Origin: a bacterium
GTDB taxonomy: Bacteria; Patescibacteriota; Minisyncoccia; Moranbacterales; UBA2206
Direction of reading: 5' to 3'
NCBI GenBank assembly: GCA_030654225.1
Contig: JAURXY010000015.1
Coordinates: forward strand, 397-64,396
DNA: 64,000 bases
The position numbers and the translations under genes are program-made. Position 1 is the stretch's first letter. Each line of letters opens with the position of its first letter. The notes below the pieces were generated by a model. The model was not told where the DNA came from. It saw only the letters and a program-made list of their open reading frames with translations, and ran no database searches. Of the stretch, positions 9,051 to 25,458 are shown piece by piece.

Positions 9051-10583
9051 ATGCAAGCAAAAAACAAAATAAAAATTTTTGTTTTTCTTTTTATCTTGCT
9101 TCTGGCAGGTTTTTTTAGTTTTAAAATAAATTGTAAAGCAGAAGAATTTCCACCGGAAGAAACGGAGGATTATTCAAAAATCAAAATCAATGAAATCTAT
9201 CCCGCTCCCAACACCAAAATTGGCGAGGAAGAATTTGTGGAGATAATAGATGAAAGCGAAGAAGAAATTGATTTTTCCAATTGGATAATCAAAGATTCCA
9301 AAGGAGCTAAAGGAAAAATTTCCAAAACCAAAAAGGATGGCGGTTTCGTTGTTTTTTATGGTTCTTTTTCACTTAACAATGATTCTAATGGCGACACAGT
9401 TTTTCTTTATGACAAAAAAGATGCCTTAATCACTAGTCAAAAATATTCCGCTGGGAAAACTGCCTATTCCTATTCCTTTGATGGATCAGCTTGGCGCTGG
9501 ACTTCTTTTGCCACCCCAGGAAAAGAAAATTCTTTTGACAAAATTTTGTCAGGAAAAATAATCCTGAGCGAAAAAATATATCCTAAGATTTATGCTTATT
9601 TTGACGTCAAAACTGACCGCGATGCCCAAAAATTCACTTGGAATTTTGGTGATGGCCACAAAAGTTATTTGAAATCCACCAAACATAAATATGAAAAAAC
9701 TGGAGAATATTCTGCTAGTCTCAAAATTACTGGAAACGGCGAAGACGCGCTTTATGATTTTGTCGTTAAGGTAGAAAAATATAGCGCACCAAAAATTAGT
9801 ATTGTGAATCTTTCTCCGAATCCCAAAGGCAGTGATACAAAAAAAGAATGGATTGAAATTAAAAATGAATCCAAGAAAAAAGTAAATCTCAAGGGTTGGT
9901 CAATTGCTACGGGATGGAAAAAACTCATCAATCATCCTATTCGCGAAAAATTTGAAATCAAGCCCGGCAAAACCAAAAAACTTCTGCGCGACATTTGCGC
10001 CTTTACTCTGGTCAACACCAAAGACAAAATTGAACTGCGTGATCCATCCGGCAAAACTGTGCAAAAAATAAAATATGATCACGGCAAAAAATCCGTTAGC
10101 GAAGACGGGACTTATTCAAAGATTAATGGTAGCTGGGAGTGGATAGAGACACAAAATGACACAGAATTAAAACAGAACAACACAGAAGCCATTGAAAATC
10201 CCCTTCTCCCTCTGGGAGAAGGTGCCCGAAGGGCGGATGAGGGGGCTAGTGCCACAACAGAGGAAGATATTCTTATTATCCCCGACTCCGAAATCCAAGC
10301 CAATCTCGGAAAATATACTACTTCACCAGATTGGCAAAAAAAGCAAAAAGACCGCCTAATTTTGGCTTATTCAAAGCACACCATAACTTTTACCGAAAAC
10401 TTACTCTCTCAAAATACTAGGGTTTTAGGTGTAATGACAGGTTTTAAACCTGTTTCTACGGAAAATTATTATTCTTTCACTACTCCATCAAACCAAAAGC
10501 ATTGGGCAACTTCGTTTTTTGATTCAATTTGGCTAAAGTTAAATTTTTCCATAAATTATATCCTCTTGAAAATTGCAATCTAA
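9051..10583 (+). CDS. Secreted multidomain protein: lamin-tail domain (LTD), PKD domain, second LTD.
   Basis: Signal/TM at the N-terminus. LTD pattern (INEIYPAPN...EFVEI...NWIIKD) appears twice. PKD pattern (WNFGDGHKS...YEKTGEYSASLKITG) lies between them. Confidence 0.7.
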   Translation: MQAKNKIKIFVFLFILLLAGFFSFKINCKAEEFPPEETEDYSKIKINEIYPAPNTKIGEEEFVEIIDESEEEIDFSNWIIKDSKGAKGKISKTKKDGGFVVFYGSFSLNNDSNGDTVFLYDKKDALITSQKYSAGKTAYSYSFDGSAWRWTSFATPGKENSFDKILSGKIILSEKIYPKIYAYFDVKTDRDAQKFTWNFGDGHKSYLKSTKHKYEKTGEYSASLKITGNGEDALYDFVVKVEKYSAPKISIVNLSPNPKGSDTKKEWIEIKNESKKKVNLKGWSIATGWKKLINHPIREKFEIKPGKTKKLLRDICAFTLVNTKDKIELRDPSGKTVQKIKYDHGKKSVSEDGTYSKINGSWEWIETQNDTELKQNNTEAIENPLLPLGEGARRADEGASATTEEDILIIPDSEIQANLGKYTTSPDWQKKQKDRLILAYSKHTITFTENLLSQNTRVLGVMTGFKPVSTENYYSFTTPSNQKHWATSFFDSIWLKLNFSINYILLKIAI

Positions 10584-11453: not shown

Positions 11454-12581
11454 ATGAAGAATAGAATCATCAAAAAAGCCCTACAAAAGCAGTTTTTTCA
11501 AGGAAAAGCGATTATTTTAGTTGGCGCAAGACAAGTAGGTAAAACTACCTTAACCCAAGATCTAATTAGTAAAAAAGACACTTTGTTTTTTAACTGCGAT
11601 AACCCAAGCGAGCGCGAATCTCTCAATGAAAAAGATTTGGATTATCTAGAAAAAATTATTGATTCAAAAAAAATAATTTTTATTGACGAAGGTCAAAAAG
11701 TAAAAAGTATTGGGCAAACCGTCAAACTTTTAGTGGATAGATTTAAAAAAGAAAAACAAATAATCATCACCGGCTCTTCCAGCATGAATCTGCTTGACCA
11801 GACAGCTGAGGCACTCACAGGAAGAAAAATTGTTTTTAACTTATTTCCGTTAAGTTTAGAAGAGCTTTTTCCTAAAAAAAATCCATTAGAAATTTCAAAA
11901 AATTTGGAAAGTTTGCTTATCTTTGGATCATATCCGGAAGTAATCAACCAAAAATCTTTTGACAAAAAAAGAAACATTTTGGAAGAATTATCTTCATCGA
12001 ATTTATATAAAGACATTTTAGAATTTCAACAAATAAGAAATTCCGCCGTGATTTTCAATCTTCTCAAAGCGCTGGCTTTTCAAGTCGGTTCAGAAGTTTC
12101 CTACAATGAGCTGTCCAATACTATTGGAATAGACAAGAAAACAGTTGAAAAATATATCGATTTGTTGGAAAAAAATTATATCCTCTTTCGTTTACCACCA
12201 TATTACAAAAACAAAAGAAAAGAAATTTCCCAATCTAAAAAAATTTATTTTTACGATCTGGGAATTAGAAATGCTATTATCAATAATTTTAATTTATTGG
12301 ATTTTCGCGATGATATTGGAGCACTTTGGGAAAATTTCATAATCAATGAACGCCTAAAATACCAATCCTATCATAAAATTTATTCCAACAACTATTTTTG
12401 GAGAACCTATACCGGCGTTGAAGTAGATTGGATAGAAGAGCATGATGGAAAACTTTTTGGCTTTGAATTCAAATTTAATCCTAAGAAAAAAATAAAAGCT
12501 CCCGCCTCTTGGCTAGAAACATATCCCGAATCTTCTTGGAAACTAATAAACAAAGAAAACTTCACAGATTTTATCGCATAA
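11454..12581 (+). CDS. AAA-family ATPase with a DUF4143 C-terminal domain.
   Basis: Walker A ILVGARQVGKTTL, Walker B IFIDEGQ, and the conserved C-terminal architecture of the AAA_14+DUF4143 family. Confidence 0.8.
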   Translation: MKNRIIKKALQKQFFQGKAIILVGARQVGKTTLTQDLISKKDTLFFNCDNPSERESLNEKDLDYLEKIIDSKKIIFIDEGQKVKSIGQTVKLLVDRFKKEKQIIITGSSSMNLLDQTAEALTGRKIVFNLFPLSLEELFPKKNPLEISKNLESLLIFGSYPEVINQKSFDKKRNILEELSSSNLYKDILEFQQIRNSAVIFNLLKALAFQVGSEVSYNELSNTIGIDKKTVEKYIDLLEKNYILFRLPPYYKNKRKEISQSKKIYFYDLGIRNAIINNFNLLDFRDDIGALWENFIINERLKYQSYHKIYSNNYFWRTYTGVEVDWIEEHDGKLFGFEFKFNPKKKIKAPASWLETYPESSWKLINKENFTDFIA

Positions 12582-12597
12582 TTATTTTTGAAATCCT

Positions 12598-12636
12598 TGA
12601 TGATCAAGAAGATGTGAAGGAAATTTTTGATAATTT
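12598..12636. repeat. Direct repeat copy 2, a displaced remnant of the yebC 3' end (encodes LDDQEDVKEIFDNL-stop).
   Basis: See 11342-11380. Confidence 0.7.
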
Positions 12637-13465
12637 ATAATTTCCCATTCTTTATCCTCGCTAATTCATCTCGAAGCATCATTAGCGTTTCTTGTTTCAA
12701 AATTTTTCGAATCATTTGAAAATTGTCATTTGACAAAAGCATATTCAAATCTTGATCGATAATTTCTTGGGTTATTTTATCTTCAACAAAAACCACCAAA
12801 TCCTCAAAGAATTTTTCTATTGAACATTTTCTTATGTCTTCTATAATTTTTGCATCATAGCGAAAACCATTCCAAAAAAAATAATGAACATCGTATACAT
12901 CGCGACCAGCAATACGGCCATTTTTTTCAAAGCGATTGATAAGTGCCACTAATTTATTCGCCACCATCGTTTCTCTCGTTTGGCAATTCACAATACGATC
13001 AATTTCCTCTAGCTGAGCGCTTTCATATTGATTAAATTGCGGGACAGGAAAGCATATATCTATTTTTAGCGTATTTCTTCCGCTCGCAGAAGTTGGATAT
13101 TTCAAAAAATATTGTGGGACATTACGACTCTTGTCTTTTATCTCCAAGCCAAGCTTTTGAAAAATTTCTTCCATTTTTTCTTGAACTTTTTTGATTTCTT
13201 CTTTTTCACTAATATAATCAAAATCCAAATCCACTGAAAATCGATCCAAAAATCCTCGCATAGCCGCGCAAGTTCCGCCTTTGAAATATAAAACTGTCGA
13301 CAAAAAGGCGTCGTCAAATAGTGCACTTAGAAGACGAAACATCCACGCTTTATGCTCGGCATCTTTTGCAGTTGGGGTAATCATTTTTTTTGTTTTTTTA
13401 ATTATTATTTTTATCGATTTTGTGGATAACCTATTTCTCTTTGAATGGCGCGCACTTTTTTCCAA
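12635..13465 (-). CDS. AbiEii/AbiGii-family nucleotidyltransferase toxin (type IV TA).
   Basis: YFKGGTCAAMRGFLDRFSVDLDFDY matches the DUF1814/AbiEii signature (FKGGTAL...RFSEDLDF). Confidence 0.78.
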   Translation of the reverse strand: MEKSARHSKRNRLSTKSIKIIIKKTKKMITPTAKDAEHKAWMFRLLSALFDDAFLSTVLYFKGGTCAAMRGFLDRFSVDLDFDYISEKEEIKKVQEKMEEIFQKLGLEIKDKSRNVPQYFLKYPTSASGRNTLKIDICFPVPQFNQYESAQLEEIDRIVNCQTRETMVANKLVALINRFEKNGRIAGRDVYDVHYFFWNGFRYDAKIIEDIRKCSIEKFFEDLVVFVEDKITQEIIDQDLNMLLSNDNFQMIRKILKQETLMMLRDELARIKNGKL

Positions 13466-13998
13466 TCAATCAAACGATCGCCGTCAAAATAACATCGGGG
13501 ATTGAAATATAAAATATCCGCCACCGCTCTTTCTGTTGACGCAACCTGCACCCCATTTTCCAAGACAATTCCAGCGTCATTATATAAATATTTATCCGCC
13601 AAACGACGACAACGATATTCTCGACCAGCAACAACAAAAGTTTTCGAAATAGAACTGATGATTGAAGTTTTTGGAATTTCTTGAAAAATTATTCCATTCC
13701 TAGCCAAAATTGTTTCGGTGCTAATATAAGCATAGCGATGCAATATTTTCACTCCCAAAAGAAAAGAATCGATTTTTTCCGCTGGCTGGAGAGAATAAAG
13801 ACCTCTTTGAATTCGCGTAATTAACCCCTCTTTAGCATATCGCTTGAGCGTAGTGTGTAGTGTATTGGGGTTTTTTATCTGCCATAAATTAGCCAAATCG
13901 TCGCAGTGAAAGACTAAAATGCCCATTTTAGCCAACTCAGCAAATCTTTGCTTATATGAGCCTTTATTTAATTTTACGGTATTTTTAACTGTACTCAT
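13411..13998 (-). CDS. AbiEi-family antitoxin / transcriptional regulator.
   Basis: Upstream of AbiEii and overlapping it by 55 nt; the size and N-terminal wHTH-like region fit. Confidence 0.7.
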   Translation of the reverse strand: MSTVKNTVKLNKGSYKQRFAELAKMGILVFHCDDLANLWQIKNPNTLHTTLKRYAKEGLITRIQRGLYSLQPAEKIDSFLLGVKILHRYAYISTETILARNGIIFQEIPKTSIISSISKTFVVAGREYRCRRLADKYLYNDAGIVLENGVQVASTERAVADILYFNPRCYFDGDRLIDWKKVRAIQREIGYPQNR

Positions 13999-14048
13999 AT
14001 GTACAGTATAGCAAACTTAGGATGTTTAGTCAACTACTTCCTGCGCGA

Positions 14049-14084
14049 ATCTTGCGCGAATCTTGCGTGAATGATTTATTTGTA
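14049..14084. promoter_or_regulatory. Three tandem 11-bp repeats (CTTGCGCGAAT) upstream of abiEi, a candidate operator.
   Basis: cctgcgcgaatcttgcgcgaatcttgcgtgaatga read directly. The AbiEi family is known to autoregulate through repeats in its promoter. Confidence 0.4.
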
Positions 14085-14175
14085 CTATATTTATCTCATA
14101 AATCAGCGACACCTGAATTATACTAAATGTTCACGTATAAACGAGATATTCAAAATATTATAAAAATTTAAAAAT

Positions 14176-14472
14176 ATGAACATCACTTTTGAAAAAATAG
14201 ACGAAATATTAAAAATTCTCAATATAGGGAAAAGTTTCCGTATTTTTGGTGGAATTGGGCTTTTAATATCTTTATGGACGACAAACGAACTAGCACTAAA
14301 AATATCTTTAATCACTTTCATTTTTGGAGCACTTTCTAGAATAGTAGAAATGATAAACAAAACTCAAAAAATAAAGGATAGTATCCTTTGGCAAATTACT
14401 TTTTGGATGATATTTTTAGTGCTATACACCGTATCAATTAATGTTCAACTAAATATTTTTAAATTTTTATAA
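14176..14472 (+). CDS. Small membrane protein, hypothetical.
   Basis: 98-aa ORF with 2-3 TM segments in an AT-rich accessory patch. Confidence 0.35.
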   Translation: MNITFEKIDEILKILNIGKSFRIFGGIGLLISLWTTNELALKISLITFIFGALSRIVEMINKTQKIKDSILWQITFWMIFLVLYTVSINVQLNIFKFL

Positions 14473-14529
14473 TACATCGCCTAACAAGAAATATTCGGTT
14501 CACAAAATTAATTAAATTATTTTAATCCT

Positions 14530-14745
14530 ATGAAGAAAAACTATGTCGTGCTCATCTTGGTTGCCCTTCTTATAGCTGGACTTGCTTTTTATCGATATGA
14601 TTATCGTCCATCTAAAATAAAGCGACAATGCTCCGCAGAAGCTAGATTCGCCTCAAGGGCGACTAATGAACCGAACGATGCAAAAAGACAAGAATACATA
14701 AATAGGTATTACGACGATTGCTTGATGCGATTCGGATTAAAATAA
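14530..14745 (+). CDS. Small exported or TM-anchored protein, hypothetical.
   Basis: 71 aa with an N-terminal hydrophobic helix. Followed by a 62-bp repeat that also follows the 15232 ORF. Confidence 0.35.
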   Translation: MKKNYVVLILVALLIAGLAFYRYDYRPSKIKRQCSAEARFASRATNEPNDAKRQEYINRYYDDCLMRFGLK

Positions 14746-14803
14746 TTTTATTTTTAACGCTTGCTCATCTAAATTTGTCTCCGCTACGCTACGCCAAACT
14801 TCG
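14742..14803. repeat. 62-bp direct repeat, copy 1 (TAATTTTATTTTTAACGCTTGCTCATCTAAATTTGTCTCCGCTACGCTACGCCAAACTTC).
   Basis: Identical copy at 15427-15490. Both sit immediately 3' of small ORFs. Confidence 0.6.
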
Positions 14804-14830
14804 GATATTCCTAGGCGTTAGCTGAAATAC

Positions 14831-15142
14831 ATGTTTTTTCAAGAATCTATATTTTTGATAATTAATAATCAAACGCATATGATAAACCCAGAAACAAAAA
14901 AAGAATTTACAGAAGCTGAATTATTGCATGTTATCATGGAAGATGTCGGGAGACTTGCAACAATAGAAAATACTCTTCGAGAAGAAGGTGAAAATTTACC
15001 TTTATACAACAGAGTCAGAGGCATTGAAATGCGCACCTATGAAACAGTGAATGTTTTGTTTGCAATAAAACGATTACTTACAGCTCTAACGTGTCTCGTA
15101 GCAGGAATTGCGCTATTATTATTTGCAAAATTCTTTTTTTGA
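14831..15142 (+). CDS. Small protein with a C-terminal TM helix, hypothetical.
   Basis: 103-aa ORF. Confidence 0.35.
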   Translation: MFFQESIFLIINNQTHMINPETKKEFTEAELLHVIMEDVGRLATIENTLREEGENLPLYNRVRGIEMRTYETVNVLFAIKRLLTALTCLVAGIALLLFAKFFF

Positions 15143-15231
15143 AGTTAAAAGTTTTAAAAACATGTACATCAGCTAACACGGCATAGCCGATTCGCTCACT
15201 AAACAAAATTATTTTTAAACTCTTTAAATTT

Positions 15232-15426
15232 ATGAAAGTATTTTTTGATCCAAGATCTTATAAAATTGCAAACGGCAAATGGGTGCCAAAATTCCATAAA
15301 ATCACTCGGGGGTATCCTACTAAGATACAAGAAAATGGTTTCGGCGATAAGCAATTTGACACCAAAGAAGAAGCAAATAAATATGTTATTGAATACTGTT
15401 TACAACAAGGCTATGTTCAGGTATAA
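15232..15426 (+). CDS. Small hypothetical protein.
   Basis: 64-aa ORF followed by the 62-bp repeat. Confidence 0.35.
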   Translation: MKVFFDPRSYKIANGKWVPKFHKITRGYPTKIQENGFGDKQFDTKEEANKYVIEYCLQQGYVQV

Positions 15427-15602: not shown

Positions 15603-16181
15603 TTGAGCTATAATATAGATATGAAAAATAAATCAAAAACTTCAAAATCAACTTTGCGAATCCTAGGTGTTGATCCTGGGACGGCCACCACTGGTTGGGC
15701 AATATTAGAAGAAAAAAGTGGCGAGATGAAACCCTTGGCCTATGGCCATATTAGCACCAGTCCCGAAAAATCAGATGACGAACGAATTTTGGAAATATCC
15801 AAAGATTTGAAAAATATTATTGAAAAATATCAACCTCAGGAAGCTGGCATTGAAGAAATTTTCTTCTTCAAAAATCAAAAAACCATCATTACTGTGGCTC
15901 AAGCTAGGGGAGCAATTCTATTGACATTAAGGCAAAATAATGTTAGAGTGTCCAATTACACTCCCCTCCAAGTCAAACAGGCGATCACGGGCTATGGGCG
16001 AGCGGATAAAAAACAAATGCAGACTATGACCAAGAGTATTTTGAATTTAGTAGAGTTGCCAAAGCCGGATGACACAGCCGATGCTATTGCGATTGCGCTT
16101 TGCCACATCAATAGTCGAAAAATTAATAACCTTAATCGCGATTCGAATCAACGAATGCATTCGAATCTACGAATAAACTAA
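15603..16181 (+). CDS. ruvC: Holliday junction resolvase RuvC. The C-terminal ~15 aa are encoded by the CGAAT repeat array and may be read-through.
   Basis: RILGVDPGTATTGWAIL, the catalytic Asp/Glu arrangement and ADAIAIALCH are a RuvC signature. Confidence 0.9.
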   Translation: MSYNIDMKNKSKTSKSTLRILGVDPGTATTGWAILEEKSGEMKPLAYGHISTSPEKSDDERILEISKDLKNIIEKYQPQEAGIEEIFFFKNQKTIITVAQARGAILLTLRQNNVRVSNYTPLQVKQAITGYGRADKKQMQTMTKSILNLVELPKPDDTADAIAIALCHINSRKINNLNRDSNQRMHSNLRIN

Positions 16182-16239
16182 ACAAAAATTCGTAGATTCG
16201 AGAATTCGCATATATTTGTAGATTCGAATCGGTATAATT
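16137..16239 (+). promoter_or_regulatory. Array of TTCG(A/T)AT / TTCGTAGATTCG repeats ending in TTCGTAGATTCGAATCGG-TATAAT-TATG, a promoter element for the 7TM gene.
   Basis: Read directly. The -10-like TATAAT lies 4 nt before the ATG. An almost identical element precedes the next gene (16897-16991). Confidence 0.5.
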
Positions 16240-16890
16240 ATGAATACTAGTCCAATAATTGATTTTTTTCTTGGCCAAGGAGTGCCATTCACCACAGTTA
16301 TTCTCATTCTAATGTTGCCAATAATTGCTACTTTCATCGCCTTCCTTCGCCAAGTAGTGGGCATTAAAGCTTTTGGAATTTATGCTCCATTGATCGTGAC
16401 TTTTGCCTTTCTGGCGACCAATGGCTTGAAATATGGTATCGCCATTTTTGTTACTGTCATTTTTTCTGGCATGCTGATGCGTTTTGTCTTGAAGCCTTTT
16501 CGTTTGCTCTACCTTCCTCGTGTGGCCATTATGCTCACGGCGGTGGCTATTTTGATTTTAGGAATTTTGGTTATTGGTGGAGAATTCAAAAGAACGGGGT
16601 TGGCGGCGGTTTCTATTTTCCCAATTCTAATTATGATAACGATTGTGGAAAAATTTGTAGCAGTGCAAATTGAAAAAGGTGACAAAGCGGCAATAGTTTT
16701 GGCTATTGAAACTTTGGTCATTTCTATTCTAGGTTTTTTTATCGCGAGCTCCAGTACCCTCATTCACTTTTTAGCCCTTTATCCTTGGGCAGTGCTTTTT
16801 ACTATTCCTATTAATATAATGCTCGGCAAATGGACGGGACTGCGCGTTAGCGAATATTTTCGCTTTCGCAAGATAATGAAGAATCTATGA
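16240..16890 (+). CDS. Seven-transmembrane protein, a 7TM_transglut-like module without the transglutaminase domain.
   Basis: Seven hydrophobic helices counted in 216 aa. It sits immediately upstream of the ATP-grasp/DUF785 gene, the conserved partner arrangement. Confidence 0.65.
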   Translation: MNTSPIIDFFLGQGVPFTTVILILMLPIIATFIAFLRQVVGIKAFGIYAPLIVTFAFLATNGLKYGIAIFVTVIFSGMLMRFVLKPFRLLYLPRVAIMLTAVAILILGILVIGGEFKRTGLAAVSIFPILIMITIVEKFVAVQIEKGDKAAIVLAIETLVISILGFFIASSSTLIHFLALYPWAVLFTIPINIMLGKWTGLRVSEYFRFRKIMKNL

Positions 16891-16896
16891 CCGACA

Positions 16897-16991
16897 CGAA
16901 ATTACGAAACAAGAACGAATCTACGAACAAAAATCAAAAAACATTTTCGTAGATTCGCATTAAATTCGTAGATTCGCATCGGACAATTATT
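16897..16991 (+). promoter_or_regulatory. Second copy of the repeat promoter element (...TTCGTAGATTCGCAT TAAA TTCGTAGATTCGCATCGGACAATTATTATG).
   Basis: Read directly; the last 30 nt are near-identical to the element at 16210-16239. Confidence 0.5.
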
Positions 16992-18401
16992 ATGTTTGAA
17001 TTTTTTAGATTAAGTCGACAAATTCTTGGCATGAATGCTCGGAACCTGAAATATATCAGGCCGTTTAATTTGTCGCGCGCCAAAAAATTAGCTGACAACA
17101 AACTGCTCAGCAAAAAAATTCTAGCTAAAAACAACATCTCTGTGCCAAAACTAATTGCCAAAATTCGCACCGTGGAAGAATTGGAAAATTTTGATTGGCA
17201 ATCTTTGCCAGAAGGTTTTGCTCTAAAACCTAATCGCGGTTTTGGTGGTGAAGGAATTTTGGTAGTTTATGGAAAGAAAAAGAATTCCGATAATATTTGG
17301 ATTAAAGCTGACCGATCAAGTGTCACCGTGGAAGATCTAAAAACACATGTTCGAAATATTTTGGACGGTTCCTTTTCTCTTTCTGGCACACCGGACATTG
17401 CTTTTTTTGAAGAGCGCTTGCAACTTTTGAAACTATTTAAGCCCTATTCATACAAAGGTATCCCTGATATCCGCGTGATTGTTTTCAATAAAGTTCCACT
17501 GATGGCCATGCTTCGCCTGCCAACCAAATCGTCTTCTGGTAAGGCTAACTTACAACAAGGTGCTATTGGCGTGGGAATCGACATTGCCACGGGCACAACT
17601 ACCACCGCCGTTCTGGGGAAAAACAAGATAATTGAATATGTTCCTGGGACAAGACTACTTTTGTCTGGAATCAAACTTCCCTATTGGAATGATATTTTGA
17701 AATTAGCTGTACGCGCACAAGAAATTTCTGGTCTTGGTTTTCTTGGTGCCGACATTGCCATAGACAAAGTCAATGGACCAACCATAATTGAACTCAATGC
17801 CCGCCCAGGACTTTCCATTCAAGTGGCCAACTTAGCCGGCCTCAAAGAGCGACTGGAAAAAGCTGCTGGGATAAAAATCAAAACCGCTGAAAAAGGCATC
17901 CGCGTTGGTAAAGATCTTTTTGGTGGAGAAATTGAAGAAGAATTGGAAGAAATTTCCGGGCGTAAAGTTATTGGCACTGTGGAAAAAGTAAAGCTTATTG
18001 GCAAAGATGGAAAGGAAATTGAAGTGGAAGCTAAGATTGACACGGGGGCATATTCAACTTCAATCGATACTGAGTTAGCTAAGGAATTAGGTTTTGAAAA
18101 AACATTAAATGATTTTGAAAATATATCCCTAACTGGTTATATTATAAATCCAGAAAATGAAAGTTTCATAAAAAAAGATATTTTGGAAAAACATAAAGAA
18201 TCTATACCGGATTTAGATGATATAGCTATAATTTTTTCAGCCAGTGGATCATCCATTCGACCCGTTGTAGCCCTAGAATTAATTTTGGATGAAACAAAAC
18301 TTTTTTCTAAAGTCAATGTAACAAAACGAAATGACTTAAAATATCCAATGATAATTGGAAAAAGAAGCCTGAGTAAATTTCTAATTGATGTTAATAAATA
18401 A
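16992..18401 (+). CDS. Fusion protein: RimK-like ATP-grasp amidoligase (N-terminus) plus retropepsin-like aspartyl protease domain (DUF785/RimB-like, KIDTGAYSTSID) (C-terminus).
   Basis: ATP-grasp blocks (ALKPNRGFGGEGI..., IIELNARPGLS). The C-terminal D-T-G motif lies in a DUF785-like context. Confidence 0.75.
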   Translation: MFEFFRLSRQILGMNARNLKYIRPFNLSRAKKLADNKLLSKKILAKNNISVPKLIAKIRTVEELENFDWQSLPEGFALKPNRGFGGEGILVVYGKKKNSDNIWIKADRSSVTVEDLKTHVRNILDGSFSLSGTPDIAFFEERLQLLKLFKPYSYKGIPDIRVIVFNKVPLMAMLRLPTKSSSGKANLQQGAIGVGIDIATGTTTTAVLGKNKIIEYVPGTRLLLSGIKLPYWNDILKLAVRAQEISGLGFLGADIAIDKVNGPTIIELNARPGLSIQVANLAGLKERLEKAAGIKIKTAEKGIRVGKDLFGGEIEEELEEISGRKVIGTVEKVKLIGKDGKEIEVEAKIDTGAYSTSIDTELAKELGFEKTLNDFENISLTGYIINPENESFIKKDILEKHKESIPDLDDIAIIFSASGSSIRPVVALELILDETKLFSKVNVTKRNDLKYPMIIGKRSLSKFLIDVNK

Positions 18402-18416
18402 ACTAACAAAAAGTCT

Positions 18417-19376
18417 ATGCGAATTTTAAAAAAAGAAGAGATAACTAATTTCAAAGCAGGAACACAATCAATTTTGAAGGCGGCTTTTGATAAGGGAGCT
18501 ACTGTTCATAAAGTCCTCGATGATGATCGTGTTTTTATTTTGGAAAAAAATGGAAAAAAGTTTTGGTTTAGAGGACCTCGTCTTTCAATTTCCAACCCTG
18601 TTTCATTATGGATAATAAGAGATAAATATTTAACCAAAAAAGTTTTAAAAGAAATTGGTGTTCCACACCCAGAAGGATATTGTGCAAAAACGATAGAAGA
18701 AGCTCAAGAAATTGCAAAAAAAATCGGTTTTCCATTAGTTATGAAACCTCGTTGCTATGAAGGCGGGTTGGGTGTATTTTTAAATGTAGATTCGCCTGAA
18801 AAAGTAGCTAGTTTTTTTGGAAAAAGCTCACAGTATGACAAGTATGTTCTTTTGGAAAAATATGTTGATGGAAAATATTATAGAATTACTATGGTCAATA
18901 ATAAAATATCTGGAATATTAGAAACAAAAGGCATAACGCTAACAGGAGATGGTAGCCAAACTGTTCTAGAATTAGTTTCTAAATACAATGCAAGCGCAGA
19001 AGAAGCTTATGAAATAACGGATAAAACAAAAGATATTTTACTTTTTCAAAACTTATCTCTTAAAAGTATTCCGTCTATAAATAATGAATTTATTTTAGGT
19101 TTTAGCGGAGCAGAAGGAGGAGATTGGATAGACCGAACGGATGATATATGCAAAGAAAATTCTGACTTACTGATTAAAATGACAAAATATTTAGACCTTC
19201 CTATGATTGGACTAGACCTAATAGCAAAAGATATTTCGCTACCTATTACAGCCACAGATTCCCCTGGATTTGTTTTAGAGATAAATGGTGCGCCAGATTT
19301 CTTGTTTCATTTAAACCCCACCGAAGGAAAACCAAGAAATATCGGGAAAGATATTGTTGATATGTTATTTAATTAA
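18417..19376 (+). CDS. ATP-grasp family ligase (glutathione-synthetase/RimK-like fold).
   Basis: VMKPRCYEGGLGVF, YVLLEKYVDGKYYRI and FVLEINGAPDF follow the ATP-grasp pattern. Confidence 0.65.
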   Translation: MRILKKEEITNFKAGTQSILKAAFDKGATVHKVLDDDRVFILEKNGKKFWFRGPRLSISNPVSLWIIRDKYLTKKVLKEIGVPHPEGYCAKTIEEAQEIAKKIGFPLVMKPRCYEGGLGVFLNVDSPEKVASFFGKSSQYDKYVLLEKYVDGKYYRITMVNNKISGILETKGITLTGDGSQTVLELVSKYNASAEEAYEITDKTKDILLFQNLSLKSIPSINNEFILGFSGAEGGDWIDRTDDICKENSDLLIKMTKYLDLPMIGLDLIAKDISLPITATDSPGFVLEINGAPDFLFHLNPTEGKPRNIGKDIVDMLFN

Positions 19377-19396
19377 TAATTTATAAATTTATTCTT

Positions 19397-20326
19397 ATGA
19401 AAATTTGTGTTATATGTGTTGAAAAAACAGACTATGCTCCAAAGAGAATAATGCAGGAAGGTAAAAAAAGAGGACATGAAATGTATATAACTTCTTGGTT
19501 GGATGTTGTAGTAAAGGTTGATAAAAATAAGATATATATTGGAGATAATAAAAAAGACTTTAAACAATTTGACGCTATCATTCCTCGAAGTCCCAGTTTC
19601 AGCCTAACAGAAAAATACAAAAAAAATATCAAAAAACTTGGCACTATTTTAAAGCTAATAATTGAGTATTCTAAAGATAACAATTTTATTGTTTTAAATG
19701 ATAAATATTTCACACACTACCAAAGCCTAGATAAGCTATCTCAACAATATTTTTTCTTTAAAAATAATCTTCCTGGGATTCCAACAAAATATTTTTCCAG
19801 ATTACCTGAAAAAATAAGCTTTCCTATTATCTCGAAAACTGCCCAAGGTAGTTTAGGTTCTGGCGTCTTTATGACAAAAAATCAAAATGACCTAAAGAAA
19901 ATAATTGAAGATTCGAATACTGTGGGGAAAAACTTTATTTATCAAAAATACTACCCTATCAGTTACGATTATCGCATTCTGGTAGTAGATAAAAAGGCGA
20001 TGGGTGTTATGAAAAGAATTTCTAGTGGAAACGAATGGCGAACAAATGTATCCTTGGGTGGAGAGGCTCATAAATTTGATGCACCGGAAGCAAAAAAAAT
20101 AAAATATTTAGCTGAAAAAGTTGCAAAAAAAATGCTTTTTGATTATGTTGGAGTTGACATATTGGAACACCAAGGAAACTACCATATAATTGAAGTTAAT
20201 TCACTGGCTCAGTTTGAAGGATTTGAAAAGGCCTATTCAAATATGAATGTCGCAGGAAAACTAATTGAATTTGTAGAGAAAAAAATGAAAAAAGAATATG
20301 AAGCAAAGACTAATAATAAACGCTGA
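19397..20326 (+). CDS. RimK-family alpha-L-glutamate ligase-like ATP-grasp protein.
   Basis: The RimK hallmark EWRTNVSLGG plus PIISKTAQGSLGSGVF and HIIEVNSLAQF. Confidence 0.78.
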   Translation: MKICVICVEKTDYAPKRIMQEGKKRGHEMYITSWLDVVVKVDKNKIYIGDNKKDFKQFDAIIPRSPSFSLTEKYKKNIKKLGTILKLIIEYSKDNNFIVLNDKYFTHYQSLDKLSQQYFFFKNNLPGIPTKYFSRLPEKISFPIISKTAQGSLGSGVFMTKNQNDLKKIIEDSNTVGKNFIYQKYYPISYDYRILVVDKKAMGVMKRISSGNEWRTNVSLGGEAHKFDAPEAKKIKYLAEKVAKKMLFDYVGVDILEHQGNYHIIEVNSLAQFEGFEKAYSNMNVAGKLIEFVEKKMKKEYEAKTNNKR

Positions 20327-20927
20327 TGATTATGGAATGTCTTCCCCTTGGAATAGGGGCATTTTAGAATTAGCCACAAAAAAGCTAATCACTAGTATAT
20401 CCGTGATGATAAAAAGGGATCATATAGAAATTTCTGATTTAATAAATCTAACAGATATATCACTCGGTCTTCATTTAGAATTGAAAAATAATAATCCAAA
20501 AAAAGAAATTATACATCAAATAACTCTCTTTGAAAAAAAATTTAAAAGATTGCCATCTCACTTGGATAGCCACCGCCATCTACATTTAAATGAAAGTATT
20601 CTAACTGAAGTTGCTACTGTCGCCAAAGATTATAATTTACCAGTGAGATCCCTTTTTGCCGAAAAAAGAAACCTTTTGAAAAAAAATAAAATAAAAACTC
20701 CAGATGATTATATTGATTGGCATCCTGATCAAAAAAATAAACTCTTTGAAAACCTAACCCAATCTACAAGCACTGTGATTGAACTTGTTTGCCACCCTGG
20801 ATATTTTGATAAAAACTGTGATTATATATATAATAAAAACCGAAAAAAAGAGTTAGAAATTTTAAAAAGTCAAACTTTTAAAAAAATAATCAATCGATTT
20901 AAACTTATTAATTATTCCCAAATATAA
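20298..20927 (+). CDS. YdjC/ChbG-family carbohydrate deacetylase-like protein.
   Basis: INADDYGMS, LGLHLEL, HLDSHRHLHL and VCHPGYFD match YdjC conserved motifs. Confidence 0.75.
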   Translation: MKQRLIINADDYGMSSPWNRGILELATKKLITSISVMIKRDHIEISDLINLTDISLGLHLELKNNNPKKEIIHQITLFEKKFKRLPSHLDSHRHLHLNESILTEVATVAKDYNLPVRSLFAEKRNLLKKNKIKTPDDYIDWHPDQKNKLFENLTQSTSTVIELVCHPGYFDKNCDYIYNKNRKKELEILKSQTFKKIINRFKLINYSQI

Positions 20928-21013
20928 CTACCTGCCTTCTTTTCTTTGCCTTGATAACCTTTCTCTTTTATAATATAATATAGAATGCTTTATAAATAAG
21001 CTAAATAAATTGT

Positions 21014-23578
21014 ATGTATATTTTCACACCAAAAAATTCTAATAATTCTTCTGGTAAAAAAAGATTCAGAATCAATTGGAAACTCTTGAGAAAATCAATC
21101 CTGATTTTTAGCGGTGCTGTACTGCTTTTTGTTATTGGTGTTTTTGCCTGGTTCGCCAAGGATTTGCCGAGTCCCGGAAATCTCAATGAGCGCTTTGTTA
21201 TTCAATCAACAAAAATTTATGATCGGACAGGAAGTCATATTCTTTATGAAGTTCACGGCGAAGAAAAAAGAACGGAAATCCCCTTTTCCCAAATGCCAGA
21301 AAGCCTGCGTTATGCCACTATTGCACTAGAAGATCAAAGTTTTTATAGCCACGTTGGCATTCAACCTAAAAGTATTTTGCGTGCTGTATTCAAGGATATT
21401 TTTAATTTTGGCGCTACTCAAGGTGGCTCAACCATTACTCAGCAACTAATTAAACAATCCCTTCTGACTTCGGAAAAAACTTTTACCCGAAAAATAAAGG
21501 AGGTTATTCTAGCTATTGAAATTGAGCAAAAATTTTCCAAGGATGAAATTATGGGGATGTATCTCAATGAAATTCCTTATGGCTCCAATGCTTATGGAGT
21601 TGAAGCAGCTGCTCAAACTTTTTTTGGAAAACACGCGAGTGAGCTTACGCTTGATGAATCAGCTATTCTCGCATCATTGCCTCAAGCTCCTTCTCGTTAT
21701 TCGCCTTATGGAACACACACCGAAAACCTCAAGGCTCGTCAAGAATACGCCCTCGATCAAATGGCGCGCCTAGGTTATATCACCGGAGAACAAGCCAATG
21801 AGGCTAAGCAAGTGGATATTTTTTCTAAGATAAAAACTTTTTCCGACAATATCAGCGCTCCGCATTTTGTGATGTATATTAAAGAATCTTTAGAAAAAAA
21901 ATATGGCGCTGAAGCAGTCGAACAAGGAGGATTAAAAGTTTATACTACACTCGATTGGGATAAACAAAAAATTGCCGAGGAAGCTATCAAAAATCATTCC
22001 GAAAAAGATGCTACGACTTACAAATCTAATAATCAAGCGCTGGTAGCAATGGATCCAAAAACTGGACAAATTTTGGCTATGGTAGGCTCCAAAGATTATT
22101 TTGGCAAAGCCACTCCGACAGGTTGTATTTCTGGAAAAAATTGTCAATTTGAAGGGAATTTTAATGTCGCCACAGCACTTCGTCAACCAGGGTCATCTTT
22201 CAAGCCTTATGTATATCTCACTGCATTTTCCAAAGGATATACACCAGAAACTAATCTTTGGGATGTGGACACTAATTTTTCTACTGACGATGGCAAGACA
22301 TATGATCCGAAAAATTATGATGGAAAAAATCGTGGACTACTTCAAATGAAAAATGCTCTAGCAATGTCGCTCAATGTGCCCGCAGTAAAAACGCTCTATT
22401 TGGCTGGAGTGCAGAATTCTATCGATACCGCTCATAAGATGGGGATCACCACTCTCAACAAAACTGCTGATTATGGACTGTCTTTGGTTCTTGGTGGAGG
22501 AGAAGTGAAGCTTCTGGATCATGTCAATGCTTTTTCGACTTTTGCTACTGGTGGAATTCATCACCCTACTGTGTCTATTCTTAAGGTAGAAAATGGCGAT
22601 GGAGAAGTGCTTGAGCAATATAAACAAAGTGAAGGACAGAGAGTAATTGAAGAAAAATATGTGGCTATGATAGATTATATTCTTTCCACCAACGAACTGC
22701 GCGCGCCAGTTTTTGGGGATAACAACCCTTTGCGTTTTGACAATCGCCCCGTAGCTGCTAAAACTGGCACCACCAATGAATGGCGTGACGGTTGGACCGT
22801 TGGCTATACTCCTTCACTTTCTGCTGGAGTCTGGGCAGGGAATAATGATAATTCTATAATGGCACAAGGAGCAGATGGATCATTTGTCGCAGCGCCAATT
22901 TGGCGAGAATTTATGGATAAAGCTTTGGCAAATTATAATGTCGATCAATTTCCTAAATATGAGAAAGAGGAAACAGGCAAAGATGTACTTGATGGAAAAC
23001 TAGAAGCCAAAAGAGAAGTCAAGGTTTGCAAGATTCCTGGTTCCAAAAATGATTATTGTTTAGCTAACGACAATTGCCCATCTTCCGAAGTGGAAAAAAA
23101 GAAATTTTCCGACGCTCATTCCATTCTATATTATGTCAAAAAAGATGACCCGCGCGGAGACGCGCCAGAAAAACCAAGTGATGATCCGCAGTTTAAAAAT
23201 TGGGAAAAAGCTATTGAGAAATGGCTAGATGATGAAAAAGGTTATTCTTCTAATTCAACTCCAACTGAAGAATGCCGATTAGATGACTTCAAAAAATTTG
23301 GACCGGAGGTAAGCATCTCCGCTCCTTCTGACGGAAGCTCTATTACTTCATCTTCTTTTACTATTAAGGTGAAAAGTGATGCGCCTTTTGGAGTTGAAAA
23401 AATAACTTTGTCTGTAGCAGGTGATGATGTCACCTCCTCTTCGGATTCTTCTTTTGAATATACCTACTCTGTTCCGGATTCAAAAAAGAATTCCAATATT
23501 TCTATCGAGGCTTCCGTCGAAGATAAAAAAGGCAACACTGATTCAGCTAGCATCTCCGTGCAAACAAATATTCCTTAA
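21014..23578 (+). CDS. Class A penicillin-binding protein (GT51 transglycosylase plus transpeptidase) with a C-terminal extension.
   Basis: EDQSFYSHVGI...GGSTITQQLIK (GT51) and the downstream SxxK/SxN/KTG-type transpeptidase region (KTGTTNE). Confidence 0.9.
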   Translation: MYIFTPKNSNNSSGKKRFRINWKLLRKSILIFSGAVLLFVIGVFAWFAKDLPSPGNLNERFVIQSTKIYDRTGSHILYEVHGEEKRTEIPFSQMPESLRYATIALEDQSFYSHVGIQPKSILRAVFKDIFNFGATQGGSTITQQLIKQSLLTSEKTFTRKIKEVILAIEIEQKFSKDEIMGMYLNEIPYGSNAYGVEAAAQTFFGKHASELTLDESAILASLPQAPSRYSPYGTHTENLKARQEYALDQMARLGYITGEQANEAKQVDIFSKIKTFSDNISAPHFVMYIKESLEKKYGAEAVEQGGLKVYTTLDWDKQKIAEEAIKNHSEKDATTYKSNNQALVAMDPKTGQILAMVGSKDYFGKATPTGCISGKNCQFEGNFNVATALRQPGSSFKPYVYLTAFSKGYTPETNLWDVDTNFSTDDGKTYDPKNYDGKNRGLLQMKNALAMSLNVPAVKTLYLAGVQNSIDTAHKMGITTLNKTADYGLSLVLGGGEVKLLDHVNAFSTFATGGIHHPTVSILKVENGDGEVLEQYKQSEGQRVIEEKYVAMIDYILSTNELRAPVFGDNNPLRFDNRPVAAKTGTTNEWRDGWTVGYTPSLSAGVWAGNNDNSIMAQGADGSFVAAPIWREFMDKALANYNVDQFPKYEKEETGKDVLDGKLEAKREVKVCKIPGSKNDYCLANDNCPSSEVEKKKFSDAHSILYYVKKDDPRGDAPEKPSDDPQFKNWEKAIEKWLDDEKGYSSNSTPTEECRLDDFKKFGPEVSISAPSDGSSITSSSFTIKVKSDAPFGVEKITLSVAGDDVTSSSDSSFEYTYSVPDSKKNSNISIEASVEDKKGNTDSASISVQTNIP

Positions 23579-24444: not shown

Positions 24445-25056
24445 TTAGTTTTGAAAATTATTCAAATCATTTAAAGCAATTTCAAGCGCGCCCGATGAAA
24501 CGCCAAAGCGCAAAGATATATAGCCAGCTAAATAAGAATTTACTGTTTTTTCGTCAATATTTTCTATATTATGTTTTTTGTTTATTTCTTGCAAGACTTC
24601 GACTTTAATTTTAATAAGCGTTTCCCTTGGGATCAAAAAGTAATTGGCAAATTTATTAGCTTGAGTTTCTAAATTAGCATATTCCCTAGTATCGATTTCG
24701 CCAATAAATGCAAAGATATCAGCCAGTTCTTGAATTTTTAAGTGTTTATAAAAATCTTTATGTAATATAAAATGTCCGAGTTCATGGGCAAGTGAGAATC
24801 TAAAACGATTAGTATCATTTTCATAATTTTTTTGATCAACATAAATTGCTGAAAAATCAGAAGTAATTTGCGCATCCACTCCGCATTGTTCCATTAAGTT
24901 CGGTATCGGAATAATTTTTATTTTTAACTTTATTTCTATTATTTCTTCTATCTCAATCGGAATATCTTTTTTCCAAAATTCAAATCTGCATTTGTCCGCT
25001 TTGTTTTTTATCTCTCTATTGCCAATAAAAGCAATGTCTATGTTTTTGTATTTCAT
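24445..25056 (-). CDS. ImmA/IrrE-family (DUF955, M78) metallopeptidase.
   Basis: HELGHFILH HExxH motif in a DUF955 context. It is paired with an upstream XRE regulator. Confidence 0.75.
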   Translation of the reverse strand: MKYKNIDIAFIGNREIKNKADKCRFEFWKKDIPIEIEEIIEIKLKIKIIPIPNLMEQCGVDAQITSDFSAIYVDQKNYENDTNRFRFSLAHELGHFILHKDFYKHLKIQELADIFAFIGEIDTREYANLETQANKFANYFLIPRETLIKIKVEVLQEINKKHNIENIDEKTVNSYLAGYISLRFGVSSGALEIALNDLNNFQN

Positions 25057-25074: not shown

Positions 25075-25458
25075 TTAGGCGTTTTTTACCATATTTATTA
25101 TTTTACTTATTTCTTCTTTGCTAGGCTTTTTATTTTTCAAAGTTCGAAAAAATGCCGGCAAAGCTGCCACCAATTCTTTTTCTTCCATAATTTCAAACGG
25201 AATTATCCCCTGGGCGATTTCCGCTTGATAGATAAATTCCTTGAATTCTTGGCTATCTTTTTTCAAACCTAATGTTTTTGCCCAAAGTTCCAACATTTTC
25301 TTGTCTGATGGAGGCGACATTTTTCCTCTTTCAATTTTACTCCAATTACTCGGATCAAAATTCACTCTCCGACACATCTCGCGAAGTGTTATTTCTTTTT
25401 TAATCCGGAGATCATATAGAAATTCTCCGAATTTTTTCAAGCTTTCATTTATTTTCAT
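25075..25458 (-). CDS. XRE-family helix-turn-helix transcriptional regulator.
   Basis: ITLREMCRRVNFDPSNWSKIERGKMSP is the HTH_XRE pattern. Confidence 0.75.
   Translation of the reverse strand: MKINESLKKFGEFLYDLRIKKEITLREMCRRVNFDPSNWSKIERGKMSPPSDKKMLELWAKTLGLKKDSQEFKEFIYQAEIAQGIIPFEIMEEKELVAALPAFFRTLKNKKPSKEEISKIINMVKNA

Follow-up and report, generated by a model that had tools for sequence, protein, structure and literature searches.

A probable Rlo-type amidoligase locus with an exchangeable ligase cassette between ruvC and a class A penicillin-binding protein gene in Patescibacteria

Introduction

The DNA analysed here is a stretch of 64,000 nucleotides (nt) of contig JAURXY010000015.1 (positions 397 to 64,396 of the forward strand; assembly GCA_030654225.1) from a bacterium of the Moranbacterales, within the Patescibacteriota; this whole stretch is called the window, and positions refer to it unless the locus of a relative is named. 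Between ruvC and the gene of a class A penicillin-binding protein (PBP) the window carries five open reading frames (ORFs), g1 to g5, all on the plus strand (16240-20927). These genes very likely form an amidoligase system of the Rlo type, in which a conserved core, made up of a seven-transmembrane (7TM) protein (g1) and an ATP-grasp ligase fused to a retropepsin (g2), is followed by a variable cassette, represented here by two further ATP-grasp ligases (g3 and g4) and a YdjC-family deacetylase (g5). Predicted amidoligase systems of this kind were reportedly described by Iyer et al. in 2009.

The five genes and their arrangement

The first gene, g1 (16240..16890), encodes a 7TM_transglut protein of 216 amino acids (aa; Pfam, 9.4e-31), and g2 (16992..18401) the fusion of a ligase with a retropepsin, 469 aa long (Pfam ATPgrasp_ST, 4e-68; Zn_protease, 4e-10). 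The cassette begins with g3 (18417..19376; 319 aa), an ATP-grasp ligase similar to the G domain of cyanophycin synthetase, CphA (NCBIfam, 9e-60), and continues with g4 (19397..20326; 309 aa), an ATP-grasp enzyme of the RimK family (Pfam RimK, 1.3e-28), and g5 (20298..20927; 209 aa), the YdjC-family deacetylase (Pfam YdjC, 1e-36). The first-pass annotation, which was made from the sequence alone, had described five co-oriented genes with short gaps or overlaps, and all these ORFs are indeed present on the plus strand; its domain calls were also correct for the five of them, since Pfam searches recover the families in question (7TM_transglut, ATPgrasp_ST, Zn_protease/DUF785, RimK and YdjC). It had placed the cluster at 16137-20927, and of these limits the end is right and the start is not: position 16137 still belongs to ruvC, in its 3' end and at the site of a hairpin element, and g1 begins at 16240.

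The spacers within the cluster measure 101 nt between g1 and g2, 15 nt between g2 and g3, and 20 nt between g3 and g4, and the last two genes share 29 nt. This overlap is considered real because the YdjC catalytic motif NADDYG (nt 20319-20336) starts inside it. A scan by consensus match found no terminator-like sites inside the g1-g5 cluster; the promoter and terminator scans reported here give consensus matches only, and the operon structure rests on spacing alone.

A core that is invariant across Patescibacteria

More than 100 homologues of g2 share 67-84% identity with it, and those that carry a name come almost all from Candidatus Moranbacteria/Moraniibacteriota. Among representatives clustered at 50% identity there are 1945 relatives of g2, 432 of them below 1e-30. 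The scan of species-representative genomes gave 80 loci, from Moranbacteria and from other Patescibacteria that include Paceibacteria, Kerfeldbacteria, Dojkabacteria/WS6, Anderseniibacteriota and metagenome-assembled genomes (MAGs) labelled Saccharibacteria. For these loci, gene order was read from crude ORF calls and phmmer seeds, with a tblastn check of ten loci in which an antisense ORF masked a gene, and the taxon labels of many of the MAGs are unreliable, several of them bearing obviously wrong placeholder names. In public records, many of the MAGs behind loci L006-L054 bear the titles 'uncultured Bdellovibrionales', 'Gammaproteobacteria', 'Pacearchaeota' or 'Fimivivens'; given the 60-72% identity of their fusions and the common synteny, these titles outside the Moranbacteria are very probably wrong.

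The 7TM gene lies directly 5' of the fusion gene in all the loci with enough upstream sequence (81/81), and for this reason the clustering of the pair is far beyond chance. RuvC is found at most three genes upstream of the fusion in 57 of 79 loci, and a class A PBP homologue at most seven genes downstream of it in 41 of the 55 loci with enough flank. In the window, the conserved upstream neighbour is ruvC (15603..16181, plus strand; Pfam RuvC, 2.5e-49), which provides context and stands outside the system, and the conserved downstream neighbour is a PBP gene of the PBP1A type (21014..23578, plus strand; Pfam Transgly, 3.5e-62, and Transpeptidase, 1.5e-21). The location right after ruvC had been taken in the first-pass annotation as a sign that the cluster matters to the organism; this location is conserved, although the invariance of the core and the presence of the PBP gene are more telling.

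Natural fusions join the components in several relatives. These are a transglutaminase-7TM-ATPgrasp_ST protein (P0258), a ligase-retropepsin-YdjC protein (P0123), ligase-retropepsin-MATCAP proteins (P0122, P0130 and P0134; further representatives of about 800 aa probably have this architecture too, judged by length alone), and a ligase-retropepsin-ATP-grasp protein (P0152). The view that the genes constitute one unit, already present in the first-pass annotation, is thus backed by synteny conserved across Patescibacteria and by fusions between the components.

Some relatives carry additional genes around the core. Two loci have an extra, stand-alone retropepsin right after the fusion, at 4332-4805 of L057, where it has no signal peptide and is followed by GT4 glycosyltransferases, and as a 161-aa ORF in L067. 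In others, RuvA and a FemAB-family gene come after the PBP gene or after the fusion (L086, 10611-12917, together with LytR_C; L066, 11430-13038, where FemAB was assigned by eye, without Pfam confirmation); therefore, the amidoligase-PBP block sits in a ruvC...ruvA neighbourhood with cell-wall bridge enzymes.

The 7TM protein

The g1 protein scores 107.6 bits against Pfam PF14402 (7TM_transglut; cut-off 25), and covers only positions 313-507 of the 508-position NCBIfam RloB model, with 80 bits against a cut-off of 900. This match is restricted to the 7TM part of the model, so that the transglutaminase domain is not on g1; nor is there room for it upstream, since the stop codon of ruvC is 58 nt before the start of g1. 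The absence of the transglutaminase had been noted correctly in the first-pass annotation.

According to hydrophobicity, g1 is polytopic, and g2 to g5 have no hydrophobic segments and are therefore cytoplasmic. Within Moranbacteria the homologues of g1 are 72-93% identical, and alignment maps the invariant charged motifs of the family to the predicted cytoplasmic loops and tail; those of g1 are R37-Q38, LLYLPR, EKF..QIEKG and GKWTGLR..EY.RF, and the C-terminus is basic, not acidic. The AlphaFold2 (AF2) model of g1 has a predicted local distance difference test (pLDDT) score of 75. The predicted topology has the N-terminus outside and the C-terminus inside. In other lineages of Patescibacteria, the 7TM protein is longer (516-553 aa) and shows a signal peptide and a PKD domain N-terminal to the 7TM region (L057, 1392-2948; L060, 8437-10044; L063, 1870-3420; L066, 8359-10020; L074, 8395-9987), an arrangement that fixes the N-out/C-in topology. 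In these long proteins, the signal peptide, the PKD domain and an unassigned region of about 170 aa take the place of the transglutaminase of RloB, and Transglut_core is not found.

The ligase-retropepsin fusion

The ATP-grasp domain of g2 (residues 17-290; 17040..17861) scores 230 bits against ATPgrasp_ST (cut-off 31), and by far the best NCBIfam model for the protein is TIGR02291, alpha-L-glutamate ligase-like (6.8e-84), with 281.6 bits against a curated cut-off of 314.2. Residues K184 and N186, as well as D254, E267 and N269, align with conserved positions of the ATP-grasp loop and with Mg ligands, and are invariant or K/R in the alignments. Top Foldseek matches of the domain were ArgX/LysX, RimK, CphA1 and Ddl.

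The retropepsin domain (residues 326-468; 17967..18395; Pfam Zn_protease/DUF785) is nearest to the NCBIfam models RloA3 (8e-11), RloA2 and RloA, all of them under the cut-offs, and also gives weak Pfam matches of the retroviral aspartyl-protease type. Its DTG motif (18039-18047), the D-T-G reported in the first-pass annotation as part of a real fusion, corresponds to residues 350-352. These three residues, as well as R423 and R446, show no variation among 50 Moranbacteria sequences, and at least 21 of 23 diverse fusions keep them; position 348 (K348 in g2) is K/R and conserved. The motifs AK.DTGA, RPV and T.R..YP are common to g2 and the structures 9g58, 9g59 and 2pma of the PDB. By motif and spacing, we infer that K348, D350, R423 and R446 would correspond to K46, D48, R114 and R137, the residues of RloA that are reported to bind poly-Glu.

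Structure prediction of the fusion, which the first-pass annotation had proposed as a check, gave two confident domains (AF2, pLDDT 81.5) separated by a disordered linker (pLDDT <50). This linker, GGEIEEELEEISG (residues 311-323; 17922..17960), is acidic, conserved across diverse fusions, and not found in stand-alone RloC-like ligases. Self-cleavage of g2 at the linker was considered, given that the linker is conserved, fusion-specific and disordered; it has a low probability and is disfavoured, since RloA needs at least eight consecutive Glu, which is more than the linker has.

The cassette proteins

What the first-pass annotation had called a second ATP-grasp can be described more precisely as a homologue of the G domain of cyanophycin synthetase. 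The Pfam matches of g3 are to generic ATP-grasp families; the NCBIfam model of cyanophycin synthetase, NF010623, is matched at positions 160-473 (8.9e-60; 202.8 bits against a cut-off of 877), and a sequence search of the PDB found the CphA1 structures 7wac (8e-35) and 7lg5 at about 1e-34. With its 319 aa, g3 is a G domain only, and the N domain and the Mur-ligase-like M domain of CphA are not in the protein. Among NCBIfam models, g3 also resembles the C-terminal ligase of GshAB and NAGGN synthetase. About 30 Moranbacteria proteins are orthologues of it, at 57-89% identity. In this subfamily, the canonical loop L-R-x-x-x-N-x-S-x-G-G, which CphA1 and the majority of the other cassette homologues retain, is replaced by the strictly conserved LGFSG--AEGG (LGFSGAEGG, residues 227-235, nt 19095-19121); a cassette homologue from L027 shows a similar loss of the loop. 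Residues K110, E147, D267, E288 and N290, aligned with the positions at which ATP-grasp enzymes bind ATP and Mg, are invariant. The replacement of the R...N loop, with the ATP and Mg positions unchanged, suggests that the g3 subfamily may be an active enzyme with altered substrate handling.

Both domains of g4 pass the Pfam cut-offs (RimK, 100.3 bits; Rimk_N, 41.4 bits, 2e-10), and its match to TIGR00768 (1.4e-37; 129.6 bits) is just below the cut-off of 143.4 bits. In the PDB, it matches RimK over the full length (7qys, 2e-20) and 5zct, at about 1e-20. The motif EWRTNVSLGG, by which it had been recognized in the first-pass annotation as a RimK-like ligase, is at residues 213-222 (nt 20033-20062). 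The last protein, g5, scores 127.6 bits against Pfam YdjC (cut-off 29.7), carries the motifs NADDYG, GLHLEL, HLDSHRHLH and CHPG, and matches the YdjC-family structures 2i5i and 7vi8, although the solved homologues are longer by about 40 residues; its identity with the YdjC portion of the fusion P0123 is 42%.

The cassette genes differ from the core in composition. The guanine-plus-cytosine (GC) content of g3, g4 and g5 is 32.2, 30.1 and 28.1%, with 20-24% at third codon positions (GC3), whereas that of the core genes is 37-40%; the GC content of g5 is below that of 99% of the 900-nt windows of the contig.

Exchange of the cassette between conserved flanks

The interval between the fusion and the PBP gene holds from zero to five genes, and 38 architectures were found in 51 complete intervals. 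Their contents comprise at least eight types of ATP-grasp enzyme, Mur-type ligases, YdjC, MATCAP-type metallopeptidases, glycosyltransferases of the GT2, GT4 and GT8 families, DUF3541 and proteins of unknown type. Therefore, of the claim in the first-pass annotation that two extra ligases and a deacetylase are appended to the core, their presence stands, but they are not a fixed part of the system.

The comparison with the nearest relatives, L087, L088 and L089, shows how sharply this segment is delimited. Their RuvC is 81-82% identical to that of the window, the 7TM protein 92-95%, the fusion 77-82% and the PBP 81-85%, whereas their cassette genes are just 25-32% identical to g3 and g4, and YdjC is missing there. 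In contrast, L084 and L085, with flanks of 59-72% identity, carry orthologues of g3 (57-60%), g4 (47-50%) and g5 (50%). In nucleotide comparisons with the near relatives, homology ends between 18103 and 18401, in the 3' portion of g2 or right at its end, and is back at 20944/20945/21003, at least 17 nt past the stop codon of g5. The right-hand edge of the swapped segment is thus the conserved spacer 5' of the PBP gene (20944..21013, plus strand), at whose beginning homology to the nearest relatives returns (20944/20945), and which holds a promoter-like site (20951-20979, plus strand; 11/12 match to the -35/-10 consensus, and a consensus match only).

Order within the cassette is also maintained: the orthologues of g3 always lie between the fusion and the RimK gene, the g3-g4(-g5) module recurs in distant lineages, and L085 reproduces the gene order of the window exactly, including the 29-nt RimK/YdjC overlap, with a MATCAP gene in addition. 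The cassette of L088 contains two genes that are co-linear with positions 153-471 (5e-74) and 481-860 (7e-56) of cyanophycin synthetase, and by this alignment it is a split cyanophycin synthetase, with putative G and M parts and no N domain. A separate M-like gene is present in L088 and L089, and not in the window; the cassette of L087 has a CphA-G-like gene and two RimK-family genes. From these cassettes it follows that g3 and g4 represent a set formed by a G-like ligase and a second ligase, with a RimK-type enzyme in the place of the M domain. As judged from these sequence comparisons, the cassette does not follow the phylogeny of the flanking genes, and g3-g5 are one allele of an exchangeable set. 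For amide-ligase genes, such a precise exchange within conserved flanks is out of the ordinary.

Comparison with known systems

The closest known system is RloABC of Pseudomonas aeruginosa, which received the name Rlo in 2025. The RloA proteases are secreted retropepsins of solved structure that cleave at least eight consecutive Glu; the rloA1-3 triple mutant dies in hypo-osmotic medium and is defective in cell shape, biofilm and beta-lactam tolerance, and these defects are suppressed by deletion of rloB, which encodes an inactive transglutaminase with a 7TM domain, or of rloC, which encodes a cytoplasmic ATP-grasp enzyme (Lormand et al., mBio 2025, PMC12239564). Consequently, the statement of the first-pass annotation that the triad is biochemically uncharacterised no longer holds for the protease, but does for the ligase and the 7TM protein. 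The same three families are together in the window, i.e., an ATP-grasp ligase with the RloC-like model TIGR02291 as its best match, an RloB-type 7TM protein and a DTG retropepsin with the K..D/R/R residues, and on this sequence evidence g1 and g2 are homologous to RloB, RloC and RloA; a link with the envelope is suggested for both systems. Nevertheless, several differences are clear. RloB has an inactive transglutaminase ectodomain that g1 does not have; RloA is secreted and has a signal peptide, whereas the retropepsin of g2 is fused to the ligase, has no signal peptide and is cytoplasmic; the window adds a variable cassette of further ligases and hydrolases; the NCBIfam scores of g1 and g2 are all under the family cut-offs; and the host is a monoderm-type Patescibacterium.

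RimK and RimB (RimABK) also offer a parallel, given that g4 is a cytoplasmic RimK-family ligase beside a cytoplasmic retropepsin. Cytoplasmic RimB binds RimK physically and trims poly-Glu tails (PMC12239564), and g2 is the covalent version of such a pair. However, the fused ligase is of the RloC/ATPgrasp_ST type, its membrane partner is obligatory, and g4 is carried by the cassette and replaceable. No gene for ribosomal protein S6 and no other acceptor ORF with an acidic C-terminal tail was found within the window. Among the three domains of CphA1 (N, G and M), it is G (about 157-471) to which g3 aligns, and both systems have a backbone ligase and a second ligase; the window differs by the lack of an N domain, by a RimK-type ligase instead of the M domain, and by the LGFSG--AEGG loop of g3.

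Other comparisons concern the logic of the systems. The pairing of an ATP-grasp amino-acid ligase with a MATCAP metallopeptidase, as in TTL/TTLL and MATCAP, is seen in relatives such as L085; the window has no MATCAP, no substrate with an acidic tail like that of tubulin is known here, and the likeness is in logic only. Mycothiol and bacillithiol synthesis, in which a sugar N-deacetylase acts before an amide-forming ligase, offers a scheme that would explain the coupling of YdjC with ligases, but its enzymes belong to other families (the deacetylases are of the LmbE type, and MshC and BshC are not ATP-grasp enzymes), and there is no glycosyltransferase in the window cassette. As in O-antigen and capsule loci, the flanks are conserved, the central set is non-orthologous in close relatives and common to distant ones, and the cassette is low in GC; in contrast to those loci, it encodes amide-bond ligases and peptidases rather than mainly glycosyltransferases, and a surface product is here a proposal only.

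A search of the literature on ATP-grasp/RimK in Patescibacteria, or on MATCAP/DUF1704 together with ATP-grasp, found no matching paper. Likewise, we found no paper on the features that appear to be new in the form present in Patescibacteria, namely the cytoplasmic protease joined to its ligase, the missing transglutaminase domain, the Patescibacteria-wide conservation, the sharp-edged exchange of the cassette, the split-CphA allele and the synteny with the PBP gene.

A possible mechanism and its alternatives

According to the first-pass annotation, the locus points to a pathway that ligates peptides or amino sugars non-ribosomally, in several steps, at the membrane. This idea fits the Mur-type ligases, glycosyltransferases and split CphA found in the cassette slot, and its chemistry is inferred. 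The model that we favour, with slightly less than even confidence, is that a membrane-associated machinery makes a non-ribosomal acidic poly(amino acid) and trims it, the cassette deciding its make-up. It is based on the combination of ligases of the RimK/CphA kind, hydrolases whose characterised relatives cut poly-Glu (retropepsin) or acidic C-terminal tails (MATCAP), an obligatory membrane partner and a split-CphA cassette; the product, its acceptor, its export and the role of YdjC are deduced. According to this model, the ATP-grasp ligases would activate terminal or side-chain carboxylates as acyl-phosphates, giving an oligomer or polymer of the poly-alpha-glutamate or cyanophycin type. The core ligase of g2 would dock on the 7TM protein, at its conserved cytoplasmic side, and make or prime the chain, and the cassette ligases would determine the composition or the branching of this chain in the manner of the G and M domains of cyanophycin synthetase. 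The built-in retropepsin, in which the catalytic Asp and the basic residues are kept, may cut or limit the chain as the antagonist of the ligase. YdjC might remove an acetyl group from an amino sugar or from an N-acetylated primer or cap and so free an amine, which is the least supported step. Finally, the 7TM protein would pass or anchor the product at the envelope, affecting cell-wall homeostasis. A product and a role of this nature would explain both why a class A PBP gene is the conserved neighbour and why rlo mutants have envelope phenotypes; these are two independent hints of a cell-wall connection, one from the PBP gene here and the other from the cell-shape and beta-lactam phenotypes in Pseudomonas.

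Several observations weigh against the synthesis of an acidic poly(amino acid) at the membrane. We know of no observed product, acceptor or activity for any RloC-like ligase or 7TM protein. The fused retropepsin is cytoplasmic and RloA is secreted, so the logic of synthesis inside and cleavage outside of Pseudomonas is not directly transferable. The chemistry of g3 may differ, since it has no canonical CphA R...N loop. YdjC enzymes are known as sugar deacetylases, and the window cassette has no glycosyltransferase. The g1 model gave no convincing solved structural relative and no transporter-like match. The adjacency of the PBP gene could be simply inherited gene order, with a promoter-like site before that gene, and g2, g1 and g4 are under the NCBIfam cut-offs for the RloC-like, RloB and RimK families, respectively.

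An alternative that we regard as unlikely is the reversible tagging of protein tails, in which the ligases add Glu or other residues to a protein C-terminus or to acidic side chains, and the retropepsin, or MATCAP in relatives, removes them; S6, the 7TM protein, the PBP and the acidic linker of g2 would be candidate targets. Precedents are RimK/RimB acting on ribosomal protein S6, and TTL/TTLL with MATCAP acting on tubulin. The membership of g4 in the RimK family, with its resemblance to S6-modifying RimK and to LysX/ArgX, speaks for it, as do the MATCAP-type carboxypeptidases fused or adjacent to the core in many relatives, the conserved acidic linker specific to fusions, and the binding of RimK by RimB, which trims Glu tails (PMC12239564) and whose complex the g2 fusion mirrors in the cytoplasm. 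However, no ORF of the window has an acidic C-terminal tail, the C-terminus of the 7TM protein is basic, and the linker has fewer than the eight or more consecutive Glu that RloA requires; in addition, hypervariable ligases are hard to square with a fixed target when the candidates tested (7TM and PBP) are conserved, and the split cyanophycin synthetase and Mur-type ligases of the slot point to the chemistry of a free polymer. A somewhat less probable explanation is a cytoplasmic reserve or osmotic buffer, either a cyanophycin- or poly-Glu-like store or an osmolyte of the NAGGN/glutathione type, that the retropepsin remobilises, the 7TM protein being a membrane sensor or regulator, e.g., of turgor, and not an exporter. 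The similarity of g3 to CphA, to the GshAB C-terminal ligase and to NAGGN synthetase, the split CphA of relatives, the cytoplasmic location of all the enzymes, hydrolases included, the absence of a transporter-like match for the 7TM fold and the osmotic phenotypes of rlo mutants (PMC12239564) are all compatible with it. Nonetheless, the ligase is invariably paired, and sometimes fused, with a 7TM protein, and this, together with the PKD ectodomains found elsewhere, argues for a function directed to the envelope; moreover, swapping of cassettes is commoner for surface structures than for storage compounds, and the cognate protease of Pseudomonas works outside the cytoplasm.

A function at the envelope could also consist in tailoring of peptidoglycan or of a wall glycopolymer, where amino acids would be added to a lipid- or nucleotide-linked precursor, either as a branch of the stem peptide or on an amino sugar whose amine YdjC would free by deacetylation, in the order of deacetylase and then ligase that mycothiol and bacillithiol synthesis follow. 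We consider this improbable, even if the class A PBP neighbour, the presence of BacA, FemAB and LytR nearby in relatives, the fusion of YdjC to a ligase in P0123, the glycosyltransferases and Mur-type ligases among the cassettes, and the effects of rlo mutations on cell shape and on the response to beta-lactams (PMC12239564) are in its favour, for YdjC and the glycosyltransferases are missing from most cassettes and FemAB-type bridge enzymes are present separately; furthermore, the basic residues of the retropepsin suit a poly-anionic peptide and not a muropeptide, and the homologous system exists in Gram-negatives, without peptide bridges. Lastly, the genes could be chance neighbours in a compact genome with no common function, considering that Patescibacteria genomes are gene-dense, with short spacers throughout, and that a promoter-like site precedes the PBP gene. 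This is very hard to reconcile with the 7TM-fusion adjacency in 81/81 loci, with natural fusions that join all the types of component, with the recurrence of the g3-g4(-g5) module in distant lineages and with the conservation of the 29-nt g4/g5 overlap, and it can be practically dismissed.

Hairpin elements and other features of the neighbourhood

Two related elements of about 95 nt each, A (16139..16231) and B (16888..16985), for which no strand is assigned, bracket the 7TM gene. Element A fills the ruvC-g1 spacer (fold of 16125-16240, -38.7 kcal/mol, z -6.5), and element B the g1-g2 spacer (-31.7 kcal/mol, z -8.2). Their common repeat units are the 15-mer TTCGTAGATTCG(A/C)AT and its complement, with seven matches (at most two mismatches) against 0.12 expected. 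Element A overlaps the last ~43 nt of ruvC, and hence encodes a C-terminal extension of RuvC; it is missing at the same site in L088 and L089, and element B (16889-16984) has no counterpart in L087 and L088. The elements look like small mobile insertions similar to repetitive extragenic palindromes (REP) or miniature inverted-repeat transposable elements (MITE), or else they may serve in mRNA processing or stability.

No Rfam family was found within the window at gathering thresholds, and no second copies of the components of the cluster were found elsewhere in it. The PADLOC models of anti-phage defence gave no match for g1-g5 at E<=1e-3, and identity as a defence system was dropped on this basis.

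In relatives, YebC is directly 5' of RuvC, whereas in the window about 4.2 kb are inserted between the two. This insert (11454-15426) contains an AAA_14/DUF4143 ATPase (11454-12581), a type IV toxin-antitoxin pair of the AbiEii/AbiEi type on the minus strand (12635-13998), and, at 14176-15426, several short ORFs, some of them hydrophobic in part. Just 5' of YebC there is a large protein of secreted type (9051-10583), in which lamin-tail (LTD) and PKD domains are found and which is kept 5' of YebC in several relatives too (L001, 2432-4327; L084, L086 and L088). Beyond the PBP gene, an M78/IrrE-type peptidase (24445-25056) adjoins an XRE-type helix-turn-helix protein (25075-25458) on the minus strand, forming an ImmA/IrrE-like regulator pair, and a TrmB-family regulator is found at 26616-27407.

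Implications

In Pseudomonas, Rlo has effects on the tolerance of osmotic stress, on cell shape, on biofilm formation and on sensitivity to beta-lactams, and the variants of Patescibacteria are natural experiments that constrain its mechanism. In them the ligase and the protease are covalently joined and both cytoplasmic, and the transglutaminase ectodomain is dispensable; the core is gene-fused to a deacetylase, to a carboxypeptidase and to further ligases, the split-CphA slot points to poly(amino acid) chemistry, and the PBP neighbour independently echoes the cell-wall phenotypes. The exchange of cassettes, for its part, marks a trait that varies among organisms whose capacity for biosynthesis is very small. 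The proteins of the cluster are small and, g1 excepted, soluble.

A broader and more speculative proposal, which we judge unlikely as it stands, is that this is an envelope-polymer locus of Patescibacteria, of a class not recognised before, whose invariant core of membrane protein, ligase and protease would assemble and export a non-ribosomal anionic poly(amino acid) or glycopeptide that is diversified by the horizontal exchange of cassettes of ATP-grasp and Mur-type ligases. If this were true, the locus would be a peptide analogue of the serotype switching of O-antigen and capsule, placed beside the main peptidoglycan synthase, and it might shape host attachment or phage recognition in these episymbionts.

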